From Dehalococcoidia bacterium (GTDB lineage: Bacteria > Chloroflexota > Dehalococcoidia > Bin125): DNA of 64,000 bases. The stretch lies in assembly GCA_965215555.1 (NCBI GenBank), contig OZ244071.1:1038471-1102470 (forward strand), written 5' to 3'. The translations under genes and the position numbers were made by a program. The notes under the pieces were generated by a model that was given only the letters and a program-made list of their open reading frames with translations, was not told the origin of the DNA and searched no databases. Below, piece by piece: positions 3,631 through 56,806 of the stretch. The number at the start of each line of letters is the position of its first letter. The first letter of the stretch is position 1.

Positions 3631-5607
3631 CTACGTGCCCAATCCGAGCTCGCGCAGGAATGCGTCGGCGTTTGGCTCCCGACCGAGGAACTGCTGGATC
3701 AAGTGCTCGGCATCCGCTGTTCCGCCCGGCTCGAGGATGTGCTGCCGATACTCGGCGCCGACGCTTGACACCGACGCACCTGGTGCTTCAAACCGCGTAA
3801 ACATATCGTCGCCAAACACACGTGACCACAAGTAGCCGTAGTAGCCCGCATCGTAGCCGAAGAGATGACCGAAACCAGCCTGGAAGTGCGTGTTTTCTGG
3901 AAACGGGAAACCAGTAATCGGATGTAGTTCGCGGGCCATATCGTCAGTGCTCTTGCCCGACTCCGAGTGATACGCCAAGTCCAACCGCGAGAAGTACACT
4001 TGCCGCAATGTGGCAATCGCCGATGACGTATGTTTCGCCTCAATCATCCGATTGATCAGCGAGGTCGGCAGCGGATCGCCCGACTCGTAATGTCGACTGA
4101 AGCTGCCCAACATCGCCGGCTGCCAGCACCAGTGCTCGAGCATCTGCGACGGCGCCTCGACAAAGTCACGCTCAACACGCGTTCCGCTGAAGCGTGTGAA
4201 ACGGGAGGTCGTCAACGTCTGGTGCAGAATGTGTCCGAACTCGTGGAACAGTGTCACCACCTCCGTGTGTCGCAACAGCGACGGCGACGTCTCGGTCGGC
4301 TTCGTGAAGTTGGCCACGATTGAGGAAATCGGGCGCTGGTACTCATCGCCCAGCCGCCGACCGCCGCGCAGCGTGAACGCCGCTGCATGTCCGAACTTTC
4401 CTGGTCGCGGATAGAGATCCATGTAGAAGCGTGCTAGTGCTTCCCCGGAGGACGGATCAACGATGTCAAACGGCTGCGCATCCTCGTGCCAGGCAGCATC
4501 CGTTGCATCCGGACGTGCGACAAACCTGACGCCCACCAACTCTTCGTAGATCCTGAACATTCCGTCCAGCACAGCGTCGAGTGGGAAGTATGCAGCGACG
4601 TCAAACGGATCGACTTGGTACTGCTCCTGAACCACCTGATTGGTGTAGTAGCGCCAATCGGCGATGTTGACTGGCCCCTGCTCACCGGTACGGCGCTCCT
4701 GCTCCCGCGCAAGTCTGTCCAGGTCGGCCGCCAGCTTCGGCTGCAATCGCTCCTCGAGGTCGGTGAGGAAGTCGAGCACGGCATGGGTCTGCTTGGCCAT
4801 CTTCACTTCAAGCGCGTACGCGGCCCATGACTCGAATCCCAGTCGTTGCGCCATGTCGGCTCGAACACCGAGTGCTTCCTCGAGGATCTCAATGTTGGCA
4901 CCGGACGCCTTGTTGTGGTTCTTGTGAAACAGCTCCCGCCGTCGGTCGGCATCGTGGGCGCTGTCCAGGAAAGGATGCAGCTCGGGATAGTCCAGCCCGA
5001 CCTTGTAGCGGACGGCCCCATCCACCTCGATCGTCCGCAGTCGCTCGATGTATCCGTCCGGCAGTCCATCGAGTTCATCGCGGCTGAGCTCAACGAAGTC
5101 TTCGTAGTCATCGATGTTCTTGCGAAACTGAATGCCCAGGCCGACAAGCCGTTCCTGCAGCGCCTTGAGTTCGTCGCGCGTCTGCTTGGGCAGTTCGAGT
5201 CCGTTGCGTCGATAGTCACGCAGCGCAAACTCCAACAGCCGTCGAGCGTCATCGGGCAACGCCTCCAACTCGGCTCTCGTCGCGTAGGCCTTGAGGGCAC
5301 GATCGATGTCCTCGCGAAACCCGATCCCTGCAGCGAAGACGTTTAATCGCTCTTCGTGCTGATGGGCGGCGGCCCGCAGGTCATCGTCTGCCGCGACCTG
5401 AGAAAAAAAGCCGAACTGACCCGAGGCCTGGTTCAGCACGTTGCCAATCTCATCAAGCGGCAACACCGTGTTGTCGAAGGTGCGCTGACCATCAGGGACA
5501 GAGACCAGCTCATCCGCCAGTCGGTCCACAGTCCGCATGGCATCATCGACGCCGCGTTCGATGTCTGCTGTTGTCGTCGTAGCCCAATTTGGTGTCTCGA
5601 TGCTCAT
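3631..5607 (-). CDS. M3 family zinc metallopeptidase (oligopeptidase A / peptidyl-dipeptidase Dcp-like)
   Basis: 658 aa with HEFGH zinc motif (LFHEFGHILHQ) and M3-typical C-terminal blocks (FQAGFGHLFGYDAGYY). Confidence 0.85.
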   Translation of the reverse strand: MSIETPNWATTTTADIERGVDDAMRTVDRLADELVSVPDGQRTFDNTVLPLDEIGNVLNQASGQFGFFSQVAADDDLRAAAHQHEERLNVFAAGIGFREDIDRALKAYATRAELEALPDDARRLLEFALRDYRRNGLELPKQTRDELKALQERLVGLGIQFRKNIDDYEDFVELSRDELDGLPDGYIERLRTIEVDGAVRYKVGLDYPELHPFLDSAHDADRRRELFHKNHNKASGANIEILEEALGVRADMAQRLGFESWAAYALEVKMAKQTHAVLDFLTDLEERLQPKLAADLDRLAREQERRTGEQGPVNIADWRYYTNQVVQEQYQVDPFDVAAYFPLDAVLDGMFRIYEELVGVRFVARPDATDAAWHEDAQPFDIVDPSSGEALARFYMDLYPRPGKFGHAAAFTLRGGRRLGDEYQRPISSIVANFTKPTETSPSLLRHTEVVTLFHEFGHILHQTLTTSRFTRFSGTRVERDFVEAPSQMLEHWCWQPAMLGSFSRHYESGDPLPTSLINRMIEAKHTSSAIATLRQVYFSRLDLAYHSESGKSTDDMARELHPITGFPFPENTHFQAGFGHLFGYDAGYYGYLWSRVFGDDMFTRFEAPGASVSSVGAEYRQHILEPGGTADAEHLIQQFLGREPNADAFLRELGLGT

Positions 5608-5716: not shown

Positions 5717-6670
5717 ATGACCGACATCACTCACTCCCAGATCGATCTCTCGACCGGCATCAACATGCACATCGCCGAGGCCGGTGATGGCCCGGCCGTC
5801 GTCTTCTGCCACGGCTTTCCCGAGCTCTGGTATTCGTGGCGACATCAGATTCCCGTCGTCGCCGAGGCTGGATTCCGCGCCATCGCACCGGACATGCGCG
5901 GCTACGGCGGCACCGACTCGCCTCCCAACGCCGAGGACTTCACCCAGGAACTGATCTGCGCCGACATGGTTGCGTTGCTCGACGCCTTGGGCATCGACGA
6001 CGCCGTCTTCGTTGGCCACGACTGGGGCGGCGCGGTCATCTGGAACATGGCCAAGCATCACCCAACCCGCGTCCGCGCCGTCGCCGGGATCAATACGCCG
6101 GCTGGCCGGCGACCGCCGATCAACCCGCTCGAGGCGATGAAGATGGATCCGGGCCGCTTCGACTACCAGCTCTATTTCCAGGACGAAGGAGTTGCTGAGG
6201 CCGAGTTGGGCGGCAATGTCCGCCGGACGATGAGTCTGATGCTGCGCACCTCCAAGCCCGAGGACCGGCTCGACGTGATCGGCATGACCTCGGGCGTCCG
6301 CGAGCGCGGCGGCCTCCTCGTCGGCCTGCCCGACGACGCCGAGCGCTCAATCATGCTCACGGAAGAAGACCTCGACACCTTCGTCAGTGCGTTCGAGAAG
6401 TCCGGATTCCGAGGCGGACTGAACTGGTATCGCAATCACGGCCGAAACTGGGAATGGGACGCCGCTGTTGACGGCAACAATATCGAGCAGCCAGCCCTGA
6501 TGGTCACCGCCGGCAAAGACGGAGTGCTGCTCCCCTCAATGACCGAAGGCATGGAAGACTGGATTCCCAACCTTTCGCGAGGCCACATCGAAGACTGCGG
6601 CCACTGGACCCAGCAGGAAGAACCAGAGGAACTGAACCGCATCCTCGTGGGTTGGCTAGCTACGCTGTAA
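5717..6670 (+). CDS. Alpha/beta hydrolase, epoxide-hydrolase-like
   Basis: HGFPELWYSWRHQ (HGxP oxyanion plus sW motif), GHDWGG nucleophile elbow, C-terminal H in ...GHIEDCGHW. Start chosen at MTDITH (5717). Confidence 0.8.
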   Translation: MTDITHSQIDLSTGINMHIAEAGDGPAVVFCHGFPELWYSWRHQIPVVAEAGFRAIAPDMRGYGGTDSPPNAEDFTQELICADMVALLDALGIDDAVFVGHDWGGAVIWNMAKHHPTRVRAVAGINTPAGRRPPINPLEAMKMDPGRFDYQLYFQDEGVAEAELGGNVRRTMSLMLRTSKPEDRLDVIGMTSGVRERGGLLVGLPDDAERSIMLTEEDLDTFVSAFEKSGFRGGLNWYRNHGRNWEWDAAVDGNNIEQPALMVTAGKDGVLLPSMTEGMEDWIPNLSRGHIEDCGHWTQQEEPEELNRILVGWLATL

Positions 6671-6731
6671 CAGGGCTGCAACAGGTTCGCCGAATCCCAA
6701 ATGGCTGCCTGAGCGCTACGTTCCAGTTTCG

Positions 6732-6872
6732 GTCATTCCCGCGCTCCGTCGCGGAAATCTCGACGCAATAGGCATCAGACGCCAATTCGAAGAGAAGGGT
6801 TTCCCATTGGGAGACCAACTCCACCATCAGCCTGTGGTGCAAATCGCGATACACCCGCCGCAAGCGGAGACC
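6732..6872. repeat. MITE-like repeat, copy A (degenerate right end)
   Basis: Begins with gtcattcccgcgctccgtcgcggaaatctcg hairpin. The ~125-bp core is ~90% identical to 7040-7178. Confidence 0.6.
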
Positions 6873-6884
6873 TTTGAATTATTC

Positions 6885-7185
6885 GTCATACCCGCGCTTG
6901 CCGCGGGTATCTCGCTGAGGCCAGCACCAGAGTCGACGCTGGTGACACGTCCGTAGTTGCACATCGGCGTTACCAAACGGATCGAGATTCCCGCGCTGCG
7001 CGCAGGAATGACGGAGTTGGTGGACTACGCAAAGGCCTCCGCTCCGTCGCGAGAATCTCGACGCAATAGGCATCAGACGCCATTTCGAAGAGAAGGGTTT
7101 CCCATCAGGAGACCAACTCCACTGACTCCACTGCCAGTCTGTGGTGCAAATCGCGAGATACCCGCGGCAAGCGCGGGTATGACGG
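6885..7185. mobile_element. MITE-like element, copy B, with ~35-bp hairpin-forming terminal inverted repeats
   Basis: Left end gtcatacccgcgcttgccgcgggtatctcgctgagg (6885-6920). Right end gcgagatacccgcggcaagcgcgggtatgacgg (7153-7185) is its reverse complement. The same ends occur at 41737-41885 and 62544-62640. Confidence 0.6.
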
Positions 7186-7227
7186 ATTTCTCAGCGAGTA
7201 TGACGACACATGATTGAGGACTGCTGC

Positions 7228-8151
7228 TCAGCCAGCGAAACGCTCCCAACCAATCCCTTCGTGTCGATGCTCATCGACACCGGGATTGATGATCTCCGCA
7301 ATGATCTCAAGCGTCTCCACGACTCTTGGCCCAGGTCGATTGACGTACTGATTTCCGTCAATCAAGGCGATGCGATCTTCGCGCACCGCTCGGAGCTGTC
7401 GCCAGTCCTCGCGCTCGTGTAGCAGCTTCGCATCCTCACGCGTTCTCTCCAGGTCGTAGCCGCATGGTGCGATGATGATCACATCCGGATCCGCCTCAGC
7501 CAGATCAGACATCTCGAAGTGCAACGACGGACCAGCAGGTTCGCCGATCACCGGTACACCGCCTGCTCGCACGATCAGCTCCATCGTCCAATGACCCGCT
7601 GTCATCAGCGGATCGGCCCACTCCACGACTGCGACGCGGGGTGAGTTCGACGTTTCCGGGACCTGTGCGATCCGGCGTTGCAGGTCCGTGACCAGCGCCT
7701 GTCCACGCTCAGCAATCCAAAGCGCGTCGGCGGTTCGCGTCATGTCGTCGAAGATGTCACTGAGTGAGTTGGGAGCAAGCGGAATCAGTTTCGTGTCGAA
7801 TCCGGTGAGTTGCTCGACGGCTCGCTCCACGTCGCGCAGGCTGACGGCGCAGACCTCGCACTGCGTTTGCGTGACGATGTGCGTCGGCGCAAGCTCCTGC
7901 AACAGGTCCATGTCAATCGCGTAGACGCCCAGGGCGTCCTCGGATCGAGCTGCAAGCGCCAGCTCACGCACCTGCCGATCGATCGCTCCACTGGCAGCGC
8001 CAGGTAGAAACCTGGGACTGGTCAGCACCGGCAGATGTTGCGCTTCGGGCGGATAGTCACACTCGTGCGACCGACCCACCAGATCGTCGCCGGCGCCCAA
8101 GGCGCAGACAATCTCGGTGGCGCTCGGCAGTAGCGAAACGATCCGGGCCAT
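7228..8151 (-). CDS. Class III periplasmic-binding-protein fold, BtuF/FecB-like cobalamin/siderophore-binding protein lacking a signal peptide
   Basis: N-terminus RIVSLLPSATEIVCALGAGDDLVGRSHECDYPPEA matches the BtuF-type binding-protein signature; no signal peptide. Confidence 0.55.
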   Translation of the reverse strand: MARIVSLLPSATEIVCALGAGDDLVGRSHECDYPPEAQHLPVLTSPRFLPGAASGAIDRQVRELALAARSEDALGVYAIDMDLLQELAPTHIVTQTQCEVCAVSLRDVERAVEQLTGFDTKLIPLAPNSLSDIFDDMTRTADALWIAERGQALVTDLQRRIAQVPETSNSPRVAVVEWADPLMTAGHWTMELIVRAGGVPVIGEPAGPSLHFEMSDLAEADPDVIIIAPCGYDLERTREDAKLLHEREDWRQLRAVREDRIALIDGNQYVNRPGPRVVETLEIIAEIINPGVDEHRHEGIGWERFAG

Positions 8152-17601: not shown

Positions 17602-17862
17602 TTAGTCAGCGGCCTCAACACTCGTCTCGGCCCGACGCGCCGCCTCAGCATCCGCCTTCTCCAACGCCGCTTGTTTGATGAAGCGGCCAAGCGGTATCTC
17701 CCGCCTGGAGCTCCTCGCCTTCAGCCGAGCCATCTCTTCGCGACTGAACGTGATTTCCATTCCAAATCGACCAGGTCCCTGATCGGCCGGATCGTAAGGA
17801 ATCTCCTCTGCCTCAAGTATTGGCGGGCTCATCACATGGACTGGTCGCTCGGACTCGGTCAT
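17602..17862 (-). CDS. BrnA-like ribbon-helix-helix antitoxin
   Basis: ...MEITFSREEMARLKARSS...RFIKQAALEKA; start overlaps the upstream toxin stop. Confidence 0.55.
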   Translation of the reverse strand: MTESERPVHVMSPPILEAEEIPYDPADQGPGRFGMEITFSREEMARLKARSSRREIPLGRFIKQAALEKADAEAARRAETSVEAAD

Positions 17863-18215
17863 CAGGTTCGCATCCTTCCACCGGGTTGATTGTATCGCGT
17901 TTGATCAGTGCGGTTTGCCTGCCACCCAGTGACCACTCTCGATTCACCATATCCGTCTGGCAAGGCAAGGATGAACGTCAAGAGACGCCCTCCAAAATCA
18001 GGACCAATCATCACAACTCGAGCCGGCTGCTTCCACGGCAGACCGAATTCATCAACCTCTTGCCGCTCGCGCTGCTCGAAGTATTTTGCCTGCCCTAACC
18101 ACACTTCCACGGCGTCAGAAAAATCTAGTCGATGACGCCAGAGATGCTCATCTAAGCGGTCGCTGCCGTTCAGCCCATGCTCAGGAATCTGAACCATGTC
18201 GAGGAACTTACCCAA
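17862..18215 (-). CDS. BrnT-like (DUF497) ribonuclease toxin
   Basis: ...DEHLWRHRLDFSDAVEV..GQAKYF...GRLLTFIL...VVTGW...TRYNQPGGRMR. Start may be the internal MVQIPEHG. Confidence 0.55.
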   Translation of the reverse strand: MGKFLDMVQIPEHGLNGSDRLDEHLWRHRLDFSDAVEVWLGQAKYFEQRERQEVDEFGLPWKQPARVVMIGPDFGGRLLTFILALPDGYGESRVVTGWQANRTDQTRYNQPGGRMRT

Positions 18216-18275
18216 TACACAACGGCGCCGCGCCTCAGCGGTCAGACCCTCTGCTGAATCAGTACTGGCGTGCGC

Positions 18276-18539
18276 TCAGTCGGCAGCTTCCACAGACTGA
18301 TCGGCTTGTTGATCGGCGTGCTGCCTCGCCTGGGCCTCTGCCTTCTCCAACGCCGCCTGCTTGATGAAGCGAATCAGTGGACCGCGAGGATGTCTCGTCT
18401 TGAGTCGGTTGATCTCGTCCCGATCGAACTCGATCTCAAGACGCATGACCCCAGGACCCTTCTTGGCTGGGTCATAGGGAATCTCTTCCAGATCGTCGAT
18501 TGGCGTATCAATGTGGACCGGAGATCGTCGTGTGGTCAT
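18276..18539 (-). CDS. BrnA-like RHH antitoxin (second copy)
   Basis: MTTRRSPVHIDTPIDDLEEIPYDPAKKGPGVMRLEIEFDRDEINRLK...RFIKQAALEKAEA. Start chosen at 18539, overlapping the toxin stop. Confidence 0.55.
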   Translation of the reverse strand: MTTRRSPVHIDTPIDDLEEIPYDPAKKGPGVMRLEIEFDRDEINRLKTRHPRGPLIRFIKQAALEKAEAQARQHADQQADQSVEAAD

Positions 18540-18874
18540 CGAATTCGCATCCTTGTTCCTGGCTGATGGTAGCGAGTTTGCTCGCCGGGAGTCGATATCC
18601 ACCCGGTGACGACATGGGACAGTTGGTCGTGACTTGGCACTTCGAGAATGAAGGTCAGAAGACGGCCACGAAGATCCGGGCCAACCATTTTGACTCGTTC
18701 AGGTTGTACACCCTCGTTTCCCAACTCGTCGAATCGAGGTCTGGAAGGTTGAGGAAAGTACTTGGCCGGACCAGTCCAGACGTCATTGGCATCGTCAAGC
18801 GTCAGGCCGTGCGACCGCAAATGCTCATCACTGACACCATTGCCAGTGACGCCGCGATATGGGATTTCAGGCAA
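18536..18874 (-). CDS. BrnT-like toxin (second copy)
   Basis: MPEIPYRGVTGNGVSDEHLRSHGLTLDDANDVWTGPAKYF...GRLLTFILEV...VVTGW...TRYHQPG. Confidence 0.55.
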   Translation of the reverse strand: MPEIPYRGVTGNGVSDEHLRSHGLTLDDANDVWTGPAKYFPQPSRPRFDELGNEGVQPERVKMVGPDLRGRLLTFILEVPSHDQLSHVVTGWISTPGEQTRYHQPGTRMRIR

Positions 18875-18893
18875 GTCTATTCACACCACTGTG

Positions 18894-24815: not shown

Positions 24816-24890
24816 GCGGGGGTAGCTCAGGGGTAGAGCTCCTGCCTTCCAAGCAGGTGGCCGCGGGTTCGAATCCCGTCCCCCGCTCCA
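24816..24890 (+). tRNA. tRNA-Gly (anticodon TCC), CCA encoded
   Basis: Cloverleaf folded by hand: acceptor gcggggg/cccccgc, anticodon stem cctgc/gcagg, loop cttccaa. Confidence 0.85.
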
Positions 24891-27510: not shown

Positions 27511-27747
27511 CTAGTCGGCTTCTAGCAGCTCGCTGCGCTGCGCACTCGCGGCACGACGGTCTGCCTCTTCAAGCGCAGCGTTCCTGATGAACCGAGTGAT
27601 TTTCGTGTCTCGGTTCAAGCCCCGTTTCAGTCGTTGCACATCATCCGGCGAAAACTCGACCTCGATGATCATCCGTCCAGGAGTCTGACGCTCACCCACC
27701 AATTCCGCAGTGTCTGCGGAAATCTCCTCGTCACGGTGAACACTCAT
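27511..27747 (-). CDS. BrnA-like RHH antitoxin (third copy)
   Basis: ...MIIEVEFSPDDVQRLKRGLNRDTKITRFIRNAALEEA; ATGA overlap with the toxin. Confidence 0.55.
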   Translation of the reverse strand: MSVHRDEEISADTAELVGERQTPGRMIIEVEFSPDDVQRLKRGLNRDTKITRFIRNAALEEADRRAASAQRSELLEAD

Positions 27748-28091
27748 CGGCGACGCGTCCTTCCACCCGGCTGACGATACCTCGCCTGCTGACCTTTGTC
27801 TGCAGGGTAGCCAGTTACAACGTGGGACGTTCCGTTCTTGGCAGGCAACTCAAGCACGATCATGAGGAGCTGGCCAAGTTGATTTGGCCCGATCATCCTC
27901 AGTCGCCTCGGTTGGCGGAACCAGACGCCGTCTTCATCCAAACCCGATCTGGCATCTTGAGGGAAGAACTTCGCTGGCCCATCATAGACCTCCTGGGCGT
28001 CCACAAATGTCAGGCCATGAGCGGCGAGTTCTTCGTCTGTTGCGTCATTGCCGGTGAGACCATACCTGGGAATCTCAAACACCGGACGCAA
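27744..28091 (-). CDS. BrnT-like toxin (third copy)
   Basis: MRPVFEIPRYGLTGNDATDEELAAHGLTFVDAQEVYDGPAKFF...GQLLMIVLEL...VVTGY...ARYRQPGGR. Confidence 0.55.
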   Translation of the reverse strand: MRPVFEIPRYGLTGNDATDEELAAHGLTFVDAQEVYDGPAKFFPQDARSGLDEDGVWFRQPRRLRMIGPNQLGQLLMIVLELPAKNGTSHVVTGYPADKGQQARYRQPGGRTRRR

Positions 28092-28130
28092 CTCCTTCTA
28101 GAACAAGCAATCCTGGAAATGGGATTCACT

Positions 28131-56300: not shown

Positions 56301-56504
56301 ATGCCGAAAGTTCGCAAAGCCACCGAGATCGTTGAGGCGGACGGCTGGTACTTCGCTGGGCAACGGGGAAGTCACCGATACTTCAAGCACCCAACGAAAC
56401 CAGGCAAGGTGACCATTGCCGGACGACCTTCGAGAGATGTTCCGCTCAAGATCTGGCGGAGTATTCTCAATCAAGCGGGGCTCGATTGGAGAGACTGGCA
56501 ATGA
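56301..56504 (+). CDS. hicA: HicA toxin
   Basis: MPKVRKATEIVEADGWYFAGQRGSHRYFKHPTKPGKVTIAGRPSRDVPLKIWRSILNQAGL. Confidence 0.75.
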   Translation: MPKVRKATEIVEADGWYFAGQRGSHRYFKHPTKPGKVTIAGRPSRDVPLKIWRSILNQAGLDWRDWQ

Positions 56505-56806
56505 AGACCATGAACTACGTCGTCGTGTTTGAGAAGGCACCCAACAATTGGGGAGCGTTCGTCCCGGATTTGCCAGGATGCGTCGCAGTTGCGGACACCT
56601 TCGAGGAAACGAAGCAGCTGATCACGGAAGCGATTGAGTTCCACATCGAGGCGCATGTCGTAGATGACGAGGCTCTTCCTGAGCCAACCTGCGTTGATGC
56701 GGCGGTCGTTGAGGTCACTATTCCCGAAGCAACGCGGTTCTACGAGGAGAAATACCCCCTGTTGGAGCCTGAGGAGCACACCGACGCCGCCGAGGTTGCC
56801 GACTGA
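56501..56806 (+). CDS. hicB: HicB antitoxin (UPF0150 N-terminal domain)
   Basis: MKTMNYVVVFEKAPNNWGAFVPDLPGCVAVADTFEETKQLITEAIEFHIE...; ATGA overlap with hicA. Confidence 0.75.
   Translation: MKTMNYVVVFEKAPNNWGAFVPDLPGCVAVADTFEETKQLITEAIEFHIEAHVVDDEALPEPTCVDAAVVEVTIPEATRFYEEKYPLLEPEEHTDAAEVAD

Follow-up and report, generated by a model that had tools for sequence, protein, structure and literature searches.

The question raised by positions 6732-7185 of a 64-kb stretch of Dehalococcoidia DNA (contig OZ244071.1; hereafter the window, with unit positions counted from its first letter) is what kind of repeat fills this intergenic region and what, if anything, acts on it. A preliminary description of the window had recognized ~35-bp inverted ends at four loci and had likened the segments between them both to miniature inverted-repeat transposable elements (MITEs) with terminal inverted repeats and to repetitive extragenic palindromes (REPs). 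We conclude, with a probability of roughly 0.78, that these repeats are CGTC-tagged REPs, the local 'Ssn-related motifs' (SRMs) of a Dehalococcoidia Ssn system with a cognate nuclease of the Ssn type. Direct support comes from the repeat class, its structure, its intergenic context downstream of genes, its turnover, and its association with an Ssn-type gene at six loci of related genomes.

From the sequence of three regions of the window, we read a unit of ~35 nt which, written head first, is (C)CGTCAT-WSCCGCG-loop-CGCGGSW-ATCTCG(C). It consists of an unpaired CGTC head, a 9-bp stem beginning with AT, a loop of 5-6 nt, and a C-led tail (ATCTCG). In the window, the pattern GTCATWCCCGCGCNNNNNGCGGGWATCTCG gave 4 matches when up to three mismatches were allowed (0.00 expected by chance), and the pattern CGTCATWSCCGCG gave 8 matches with at most one mismatch (0.89 expected). 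A covariance model, R1, was built from 45 diverse units, all from other genomes (Dehalococcoidia), and run unfiltered over the window. It returned exactly eight significant units (E 1.4e-12 to 1.3e-7), and elsewhere in the window only the opposite strands of the palindromes or noise (E >= 0.14). The end motif was thus found where it had first been noticed, far beyond chance. Seven of the eight units carry a CGTC head and one has GGTC. Seven also fold as DNA hairpins with 9-10-bp stems (-8.6 to -12.1 kcal/mol, z -2.1 to -4.2). The exception is the unit at 6728, whose stem contains a mismatch and which is indistinct from shuffled sequences (z = 0.06).

The eight units form five elements (A, X, B, C, and D), mainly head-to-head inverted pairs, in three intergenic gaps. 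A, X, and B occupy the gap at 6671-7227, where an alpha/beta-hydrolase gene and a Peripla_BP_2 gene face each other with their 3' ends. C lies in the gap at 41696-41931, whose flanking genes, one of the APH family and one for a 4HBT thioesterase, share a strand. D lies in the gap at 62485-62723, and here too the flanking genes, one hypothetical and one DUF433, are on the same strand. One gap is convergent, two are co-directional, and none is divergent; all copies are intergenic, in agreement with the preliminary description. The bracketed spacers measure ~32-100 bp, less than the 100-300 bp first given. Searched against Rfam at the gathering threshold, the whole window yielded four tRNAs only, and a permissive search of the D and A-X-B regions gave chance-level matches only. 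No intrinsic terminator or promoter, and no T-tract terminator, was found in 6500-7400.

In order to see how widely the unit occurs, we scanned other genomes, one per species, with an exact pattern and obtained at least 112 loci (given L numbers below), many of them from the same chromosomes; the motif is therefore not unique to the window. Among the loci listed, nearly all come from Dehalococcoidia/Chloroflexota metagenome-assembled genomes (MAGs), several of which are complete chromosomes of 2.5-3.7 Mb, and a few come from Alphaproteobacteria. Some of the MAG names look like those of bins published from sponge microbiomes. The window is 74-86% identical to parts of OZ242948.1 (L032). In ~0.9 Mb of retrieved loci we counted 309 units, with loops of 5 nt (n=222), 6 nt (n=49), or 2-4 nt (n=38), compared with 5 or 6 nt in the window. 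The 156 adjacent unit pairs comprise 73 head-to-head, 21 tail-to-tail, and 62 same-orientation pairs. Head-to-head spacers have a mode of 30-32 bp, which gives a 93-95-bp element as the commonest arrangement, and TGCC/ACCC heterodimers account for 38 of 66 dimers. The sampled loci further contain solitary units, arrays of units in the same orientation, and half-units, and a minority subtype has a CAC tail.

The paired structure of the unit is supported by sequence covariation. All 45 diverse units of alignment A2 share GTCAT and the C following the palindrome; the filter that admitted these units tolerated up to two tail mismatches. In the curated alignment, two-sided changes are seen in 7 of 9 pairs, with a covariation of 0.443 compared with 0.114 for shuffled alignments and also well above slid controls; the first stem pair is A-U in 44/45 units and the second is U-A in 45/45. 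Because the curated units had been pre-filtered for pairing, a fairer test is provided by 84 units chosen by head and tail alone, with matches to the scan pattern left out. Perfect 7-bp inner stems, of several sequences, were present in 57 of these. G-U pairs are rare and the changes are almost all Watson-Crick, indicating that pairing on both DNA strands fits the stems better than a constraint acting on RNA only.

These properties can be compared with those of a known repeat class. CGTC REPs have a CGTC (or TGTC/CCTC) head, 8-9-bp stems starting with AT (A-T, T-A), loops of 4-5 nt, and a short tail that is mostly CCA; they are mostly head-to-head dimers, frequently of two different units, with 20-100 bp between the units, and are found between ORFs (open reading frames) that converge or run in the same direction. 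Some are placed inside longer palindromes, and clusters arise where dimers are reiterated in tandem along with flanking DNA (PMC3733652). All of these features that could be checked are found here, except the tail sequence. The families CGTC-1 to CGTC-4, including Rickettsia RPE-4/6 and alphaproteobacterial REPs (PMC3733652), likewise share tag, stem, loop, dimers, gap placement, palindromes, and clusters with the present repeats; they differ in their tail, mostly CCA rather than the CTCG(C) found here, and some window loops, at 6 nt, are slightly above the published 4-5 nt. Di Nocera et al. 2013 described CGTC REPs without an associated transposase or enzyme in five phyla, the Chloroflexi, with GTAG repeats only, not being among them (PMC3733652). 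In one Alphaproteobacteria MAG (L023), ~90-bp head-to-head dimers with the same head and tail (GTCATGCCCGCG...ATCTCGCTTA) are located at 187-276 and 3720-3809, and two Xanthobacteraceae MAGs (L047 and L066) contain single exact motif matches. These occurrences are in line with the known alphaproteobacterial CGTC REPs.

We analyzed the genetic context of the units in the retrieved loci, with genes called by a rough codon-usage scorer. Only 7% of the units overlap the 3' 70% of called ORFs. Of the gaps with unit clusters, 43 are convergent, 67 tandem, and 14 divergent, the background numbers being 153, 396, and 148, respectively; clusters are enriched in convergent gaps and depleted in divergent ones. 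Where the neighboring genes are co-directional, the ACCC unit stands next to the stop codon of the upstream gene in 13 of 16 heterodimers, some of these loci being orthologous so that the counts are not independent.

The next question is which enzyme belongs with such repeats. SsnA of Neisseria is a 94-aa single-domain GIY-YIG nuclease whose single-stranded DNA target, the NTS, contains dRS3 (PMC11893778). In Neisseria, the folded hairpin is a substrate of Ssn only in single-stranded DNA, where it is bound and the strand is cut just 5' of it, and RNA is not bound; both cleavage and binding depend critically on the head and on the C that follows the palindrome, mutations of Y6, Y17, or E64 abolish SsnA cleavage, and ssn genes are typically flanked by repeats (PMC11893778). 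Homologs of SsnA were defined in the same study by E < 1e-10 over > 75% of the length (PMC11893778), and six ORFs in related genomes qualify under this definition. These ORFs, of 96-97 aa, were found by tblastn in related loci; they match PF01541 only in Pfam (E 1e-13 to 1e-17), and none is matched by an NCBIfam model. All six genes have R1 units on both sides within 500 bp, the nearest lying 13-225 bp from the gene ends. When one of the ORFs was searched against a plasmid collection, the best match was a 2.17-Mb N. gonorrhoeae record (tblastn 5e-24 over 96% of the query), in which the matching ORF encodes 94 aa with 50% identity (BLASTP 1e-34) and is surrounded by 17 NTS copies detected by R1. 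Y6, Y17, and E64 are invariant in an alignment (A5) of the six Dehalococcoidia proteins, the gonococcal ORF, and a Novosphingobium homolog.

The gonococcal record (NZ_CP119140.1 in PLSDB; locus L119) is filed as a plasmid with 12 annotated features and is evidently the chromosome; the ssnA-like ORF, at 1198-1482 of the L119 locus, is unannotated in it. At three of the Dehalococcoidia loci (L046, L039, and L089), a solo ACCC unit stands head first 31-32 bp upstream of the ssn start codon. We considered the possibility that the 93-95-bp heterodimer represents the two ends of an ACCC-ssn-TGCC cassette, and dropped it since the same three loci have the solo ACCC unit upstream and an ordinary dimer downstream.

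The resemblance to the Neisseria NTS/dRS3 is extensive. They likewise have a CGTCAT head, an AT stem start, a C after the palindrome, and many intergenic clustered copies, with a ~95-aa single-domain GIY-YIG gene between repeats, and the geometry of NTSvar is the same (9-bp stem, 5-nt loop). The two differ in host, the window being from Chloroflexota/Dehalococcoidia whereas Pseudomonadati are stressed in PMC11893778, and in that the stems here are ACCCGCG/TGCCGCG, the tail is CTCG, and a fixed 93-95-bp heterodimer dominates. CGTC REPs, which were without an enzyme in the 2013 survey, were tied to Ssn in 2025, and the pair of repeat and enzyme is now also found in Dehalococcoidia MAGs.

Another pairing of repeat and enzyme is that of the REPIN-RAYT systems, in which inverted pairs of GTAG REPs (Pseudomonas/Enterobacteria) are copied by a single-copy IS200/IS605-like tyrosine (HUH) transposase. 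The window elements resemble REPINs in being inverted doublets that can fold into one long imperfect hairpin, in lacking target duplications, in their vertical persistence (D is kept at an orthologous site), and in the presence of a repeat-flanked small gene in relatives. The tag and the enzyme are different: the head is CGTC and not the GTAG cleaved by RAYT (PMC3733652), and the small gene bracketed by units encodes a GIY-YIG rather than an HUH protein. With IS608 TnpA and an E. coli RAYT as tblastn queries, no match in the window or in ~0.96 Mb of loci was better than E = 0.3, although this is a weak test. The IS200/IS605 TnpA proposed earlier as a partner was thus not found within the reach of this test, the bracketed gene in relatives being the 96-aa Ssn-type GIY-YIG gene. 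We regard a RAYT as very unlikely to be the agent here.

If the repeats are CGTC REPs served by an Ssn-type nuclease, the source genome would be expected to encode an Ssn outside the 64 kb. By analogy with Neisseria, this Ssn would bind the folded unit and cut 5' of it on DNA that is single-stranded during replication, repair, or DNA uptake, and its cutting may limit or channel the recombination of incoming or single-stranded DNA. More speculatively, Ssn activity, not a classical transposase, could underlie the multiplication of the repeats and mosaics such as A-X-B.

Several points weigh against this interpretation. No Ssn homolog is present within the 64-kb window, the ssn genes being known from related-genome loci, and a role of a Chloroflexota Ssn in cleavage, transformation, or transposition is proposed by analogy. 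Because SsnA was published as a transformation-restricting nuclease and not as a transposase, a role in copying repeats is conjecture. The GIY-YIG genes were first found by tblastn with GIY-YIG query sequences, run over motif-selected loci, and Pfam and the comparison with the Neisseria locus then provided independent confirmation; the gonococcal ORF is called an SsnA ortholog by its length, catalytic residues, and NTS flanks, not by accession. The loci themselves were picked for carrying the motif, so their counts and proportions represent biased samples. Finally, the SRM string HGTCWYN(0-2)YYVSBRHN(0-5)WNVSBRGN(0-2)RNCYNB matches only one of the eight window units (41736-41767, the left-hand unit of C). 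In the other seven, the mismatch lies at one W position of this hand-made search string and not in the overall layout. As the local variant largely escapes the SRM string, surveys based on it will undercount such genomes. The kind of repeat is therefore known; what is new is the host lineage, the variant missed by the SRM string, the fixed TGCC/ACCC heterodimer, and the related chromosomes in which sites are filled, empty, or differently filled.

How, then, is the stretch at 6732-7185 built? It begins with the REP unit A-left (6728-6767, + strand), which has a GGTCAT head, a stem ATTCCCGCG/CGCGGAAAT with one mismatch, the loop CTCCGT, and the tail CTCGA (R1 36.0 bits, E 1.3e-7), and which recurs almost unchanged at the orthologous site of L113 and as a solo unit in L114. 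The A interior follows at 6768-6865 (+), together with part of the right-hand unit, namely its first arm and its loop; this half-unit (6845-6865, cgcgatacacccgcc-gcaagc) stops at the loop, and its junction ...CCGCCGCAAGC|GGAGACCTTTG is also present in L113. An 11-bp inverted repeat, with its left copy GGAGACCTTTG at 6866-6876 (+) and its right copy CAAAGGCCTCC at 7030-7040 (+; one mismatch relative to the reverse complement of the left copy), brackets element X. X is a complete head-to-head dimer (6884-7013) made of X-left (6881-6919, +; CGTCAT-ACCCGCG-CTTGC-CGCGGGT-ATCTCGC; R1 53.0 bits, E 2.3e-12; hairpin of -11.2 kcal/mol, z -4.1) and X-right (6978-7016, -; stem ATTCCTGCG/CGCGGGAAT; pattern match with 1 mismatch; R1 47.0 bits, E 1.1e-10). 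Element B starts with the loop and second arm of its left unit (7041-7060, gctccgt-cgcgagaat-ctcg), continues with an A-like interior up to 7148 (7041-7148, +), and ends with B-right (7149-7187, -), whose core is identical to X-left and which is an exact pattern match (R1 47.3 bits, E 8.9e-11). A flank homologous to 7030-7040, GG(A/C)CTTTGC..CCACCAA.TCC|GTCAT, adjoins dimers in L017, L031, L036, L074, and L103.

The stretch thus contains three tandem elements: A (6732 to ~6865), X (6884-7013), and B (7041-7185). The preliminary description had taken 6885-7185 for a single element because the unit 6983-7012(-) had been missed, and had called 6732-6872 degenerate; the short ends of A and B are instead units that stop at their loops beside the 11-bp inverted repeat, not mutated hairpins. 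The common core of A and B, given as ~125 bp at ~90% identity, was recovered as 94% over 83 bp (6742-6824 and 7040-7122) and 90% over 39 bp (6828-6866 and 7135-7173). In effect, two copies of the loop-to-loop stretch of an ancestral dimer lie on either side of the segment bounded by the 11-bp inverted repeats. The duplicated stretches (6742-6866 and 7040-7173) run from left-unit loop to right-unit loop and flank the X insert like a ~125-bp 'target duplication' between two hairpin tips. L113 has one of the junctions but not the duplication. In its mosaic structure, with hairpin units alternating with 60-130-bp variable segments and a content that varies between close relatives, 6732-7185 is similar to the bacterial interspersed mosaic elements (BIMEs) of E. 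coli and the neisserial intergenic mosaic elements (NIMEs); these differ in composition and unit sequence, and the window has two loop-cut units beside a second inverted repeat. The interiors of A/B, X, and C are longer than the canonical one and specific to this genome, unmatched in the sampled loci except for the first ~20 nt adjoining the units.

Comparison with relatives revealed how these sites change. Gene order at the first locus is conserved in four relatives (L113, L114, L115, and L116). Exact-sequence look-ups of the binding protein encoded in the window and of the protein P0122 gave no record. The gap between the binding-protein and hydrolase genes, which measures 557 bp in the window (A, X, and B), measures 427 bp in L113 (binding protein 96% identical), where it holds a single A-like dimer whose right-hand unit carries a ~196-bp insert; 314 bp in L114 (93%), with a solo A-left-like unit followed by a D-type composite (see below); and 9 bp, without any element, in L115 (85%). 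In L116 (4006-4818; binding protein 84%), the gap holds a called 270-aa ORF without a Pfam match and no R1 unit. The C site, 236 bp in the window, is empty in the syntenic L117 (39-bp gap) and L118 (9-bp gap), so that syntenic relatives with an empty site are known for two of the three window loci. D, in contrast to these, is present at the orthologous position in L032 within surroundings that are ~78% identical, its hairpins almost unchanged while spacer and flanks have diverged. Elements are therefore gained and lost between close relatives without target duplications, yet some persist. The repeats can accordingly be described, as first proposed, as REP-like, non-autonomous, multi-copy, and probably unannotated, being abundant in relatives, absent from some orthologous sites, and without an Rfam family. 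Complete related chromosomes with filled, empty, and differently filled sites constitute a natural data set on repeat gain and loss.

The insert in L113 deserves separate mention. At 3958-4165 of this locus (ERZ25070901 contig_7), orthologous to window 6845-7185, the ~196-bp non-coding insert splits the loop of a REP unit; it has GGAGACCTTTG inverted ends and two internal CCCCGC...GCGGGG hairpins, and the loop sequence GCAAGC is duplicated on either side. Elements of the IS1397/ISKpn1 type insert into REP loops. L113 likewise has a foreign element exactly in a REP loop with a short loop duplication, and differs in that the insert is non-coding with its own hairpins rather than a transposase-bearing IS.

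The same comparisons bear on the proposal that the units are host cis-acting RNA elements (3'-end stabilizers, terminators, or attenuators) kept for regulating their neighbors. The enrichment of clusters between convergent genes, their depletion between divergent ones, and the ACCC unit beside the upstream stop codon in 13 of 16 tandem cases would suit such elements, as would the much stronger conservation of the hairpins than of spacer or flanks at D, and known REPs can stabilize mRNA (PMC3733652). Close relatives with identical gene order, however, have empty or differently filled sites, so the units are not conserved regulatory hairpins of the adjacent genes, although D is common to one diverged relative (L032). 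Moreover, the absence of T-tract terminators from 6500-7400 and of Rfam matches, the almost exclusively Watson-Crick stem changes with few G-U pairs, and the failure of SsnA to bind RNA (PMC11893778) all speak against a purely regulatory RNA, which we consider quite unlikely. A secondary effect at the RNA level is possible alongside the CGTC REP and Ssn explanation.

The remaining window elements show the family in its simple and in its nested form. C is a head-to-head dimer of C-left (41733-41772, +; stem ATTCCCGCG, loop CTTCGA; R1 53.1 bits, E 2.1e-12) and C-right (41848-41887, -; stem ATGCCCGCG/TGCGGGTAT; R1 37.1 bits, E 6.1e-8) with a spacer specific to the window; it has the same ends and a different interior, as the preliminary description had it. 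D is a 95-bp head-to-head TGCC/ACCC heterodimer (62544-62638), the canonical form in other genomes. D-left, of the TGCC type (62540-62578, +; stem ATTGCCGCG/CGCGGCAAT; R1 53.8 bits, E 1.4e-12), differs from the CCC type by a compensatory change on both sides of the stem, and D-right is of the ACCC type (62603-62642, -; R1 49.6 bits, E 2e-11). The center of the ~32-nt spacer between them (62579-62602, +) contains a small central GCAC...GTGC inverted repeat, the rest of the spacer lying under the unit tails; both the spacer length and the central motif recur in most of 48 compact dimers from other genomes. The D dimer can also fold as one long imperfect hairpin (DNA, -32.5 kcal/mol, z -5.6).

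D was correctly described as nested in a second inverted repeat. The left outer repeat, (T)TAGGGCGTGTTCACAT, lies at 62502-62518 (+) and the right one at 62664-62680 (-; ATGTGAACACGCCCTAG on the + strand), together bounding a ~178-bp composite around the dimer. This outer repeat also encloses dimers in L012, L032, L043, L050, and L114; the composite has the order outer repeat CTAGGGCSTGTTCACAT, ~24 bp, dimer, ~22 bp, outer repeat ATGTGAACASGCCCTAG, for ~178 bp in total, and the ends of the composite are CTAGGGCCTGTTCACAT. Folded as RNA, the 184-nt composite reaches -90.1 kcal/mol (z -7.5). Window 62564-62680 is 92% identical to L080 3765-3880. The composite is itself a repeat, with copies at window 62502-62680, at L114 3974-4150, and in L012, L032, L043, and L050, and with half copies in L002, L025, L080, and L092. 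The window D site and the binding-protein/hydrolase gap of L114 are not orthologous, and the segments from outer repeat to dimer appear largely similar by eye. The composite ends read CTAG, in which a TA duplication could hide, and the outer-repeat motif has 30 matches with at most three mismatches in the sampled DNA, some of them solitary.

These composites bring up the interpretation of the family as classical MITEs, that is, internally deleted IS copies moved in trans by a DDE transposase recognizing the ~35-bp terminal inverted repeats. The inverted unit pairs, heads outward around interiors of 30-100 bp, are as would be expected, and so are the sites filled or empty between relatives; the recurrence of the outer-repeat composite (CTAGGGCSTGTTCACAT...ATGTGAACASGCCCTAG) at a non-orthologous site, with CTAG ends compatible with a TA duplication, and the GGAGACCTTTG-ended element of L113 with the 6-bp direct repeat GCAAGC on either side also point in this direction. 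A search for target-site duplications at each of six boundary offsets nevertheless gave 2-8-bp direct repeats in 0-7 of ~65 dimers, which is chance level, the only excess being in the L002 tandem array (below). Solo units, same-orientation arrays, and half-units occur, copies with the same ends have wholly different interiors, and the CGTC REP class was reported without an associated transposase (PMC3733652). In addition, about 12 unit pairs lying 0.6-3 kb apart in the sampled loci enclose no transposase-like ORF, and no full-length element with the same ends and a transposase gene turned up among pairs 0.6-5 kb apart in these loci; as judged by eye from translations, the ORFs between distant pairs are dehydratase-like, metallo-beta-lactamase-fold, enoyl-CoA hydratase, TauD-like, and RCC1-repeat ones. 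The MITE part of the original interpretation is thus weaker than its REP-like part. We consider it unlikely for the family, although the outer-repeat composites could possibly be MITEs. Each of the rivals weighed here (MITE, REPIN/RAYT, and purely regulatory RNA) fails at least one direct test.

Several arrays accompany the dimers. In L002 (5660-6689; OZ242948.1), a 111-bp block consisting of a 93-bp TGCC/ACCC dimer and an 18-bp flank (ggaccaagccaaatctcc) is repeated head to tail at least nine times, forming a minisatellite of entire dimers. This 111-bp period might be taken for a CRISPR-like array, a candidate which we rejected because the block is a reiterated dimer plus flank without variable spacers. 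Half-units of 22-24 bp (GCGCGGGTATGACGGAGGGGGT; head and one stem arm, without the partner arm) are arranged in tandem, in up to ~10 copies, at 946-1567 and 5368-6100 of L041 (OZ241849.1), and such arrays are also found downstream of the ssn genes in L046, L024, and L089. Complete units are interspersed among them at periods of 131-212 bp. Isolated half-units stand just outside dimers in L037, L051, L058, L087, and L089.

It is tempting to go one step further and see in the Ssn-type GIY-YIG nuclease the agent that multiplies CGTC REPs, beyond its restriction-like role; this is a tentative idea to which we give a small chance of being right. Cuts at folded single-stranded units, followed by rejoining or repair, might yield new dimers, tandem arrays, and half-unit arrays, and would also insert elements at hairpin tips and palindrome centers. 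Such a process is consistent with sites filled or empty without target duplications, with loop-cut units beside inserted DNA (window 6845-6876 and 7030-7060; L113), with the ~125-bp loop-to-loop duplication flanking an insert, with 22-bp half-unit arrays next to ssn genes, and with dimers at the centers of longer palindromes.

Some further observations concern the annotation and surroundings of the repeats. Spurious ORFs of 61-169 aa cross the REP blocks at 6879-7073(-), 6957-7217(+), 41434-41880(-), 41531-42040(+), 62406-62669(+), and 62534-62719(-). They translate units as ...VIPALAAGIS... or ...IPAASAGMT... and are at risk of being mis-annotated as hypothetical proteins; such intergenic blocks are better labeled as REP/SRM repeats than as genes. 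Long, secreted-looking proteins with RCC1-like repeats (...VECWG.N..GQTDAP.G.F.AVSAG..H.CGLR...), recognized by eye, are encoded between REP clusters in the Dehalococcoidia loci L011 (2312-4597), L051 (4993-6344), and L083 (3383-4599).

Elsewhere in the window, the four tRNA genes are located at 24816-24887, 44598-44670, 45591-45661, and 45670-45753, with a DUF3800 gene (44730-45428) among three of them, and a HicB-like antitoxin gene lies at 56336-56806. Three paralogous small ORFs (17862-18275(-), 18536-18880(-), and 27744-28097(-)) share the motif ...MIGP...G.LL..IL.LP.....HVVTG......Q.RY.QPG.R.R.; they were considered as BrnT-like toxins, a candidate which was rejected because Pfam gave no match at E <= 0.001 for any of them. 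A 13-bp tandem repeat (GCAATGACCAGCC; 4.1 copies, 85% matches) occupies 42958-43010, in the intergenic gap on the upstream side of the APH-family gene. It adjoins a putative minus-strand gene for a short L36 ribosomal protein (~43030-43143), as suggested by the raw sequence and by synteny with L117 and L118.

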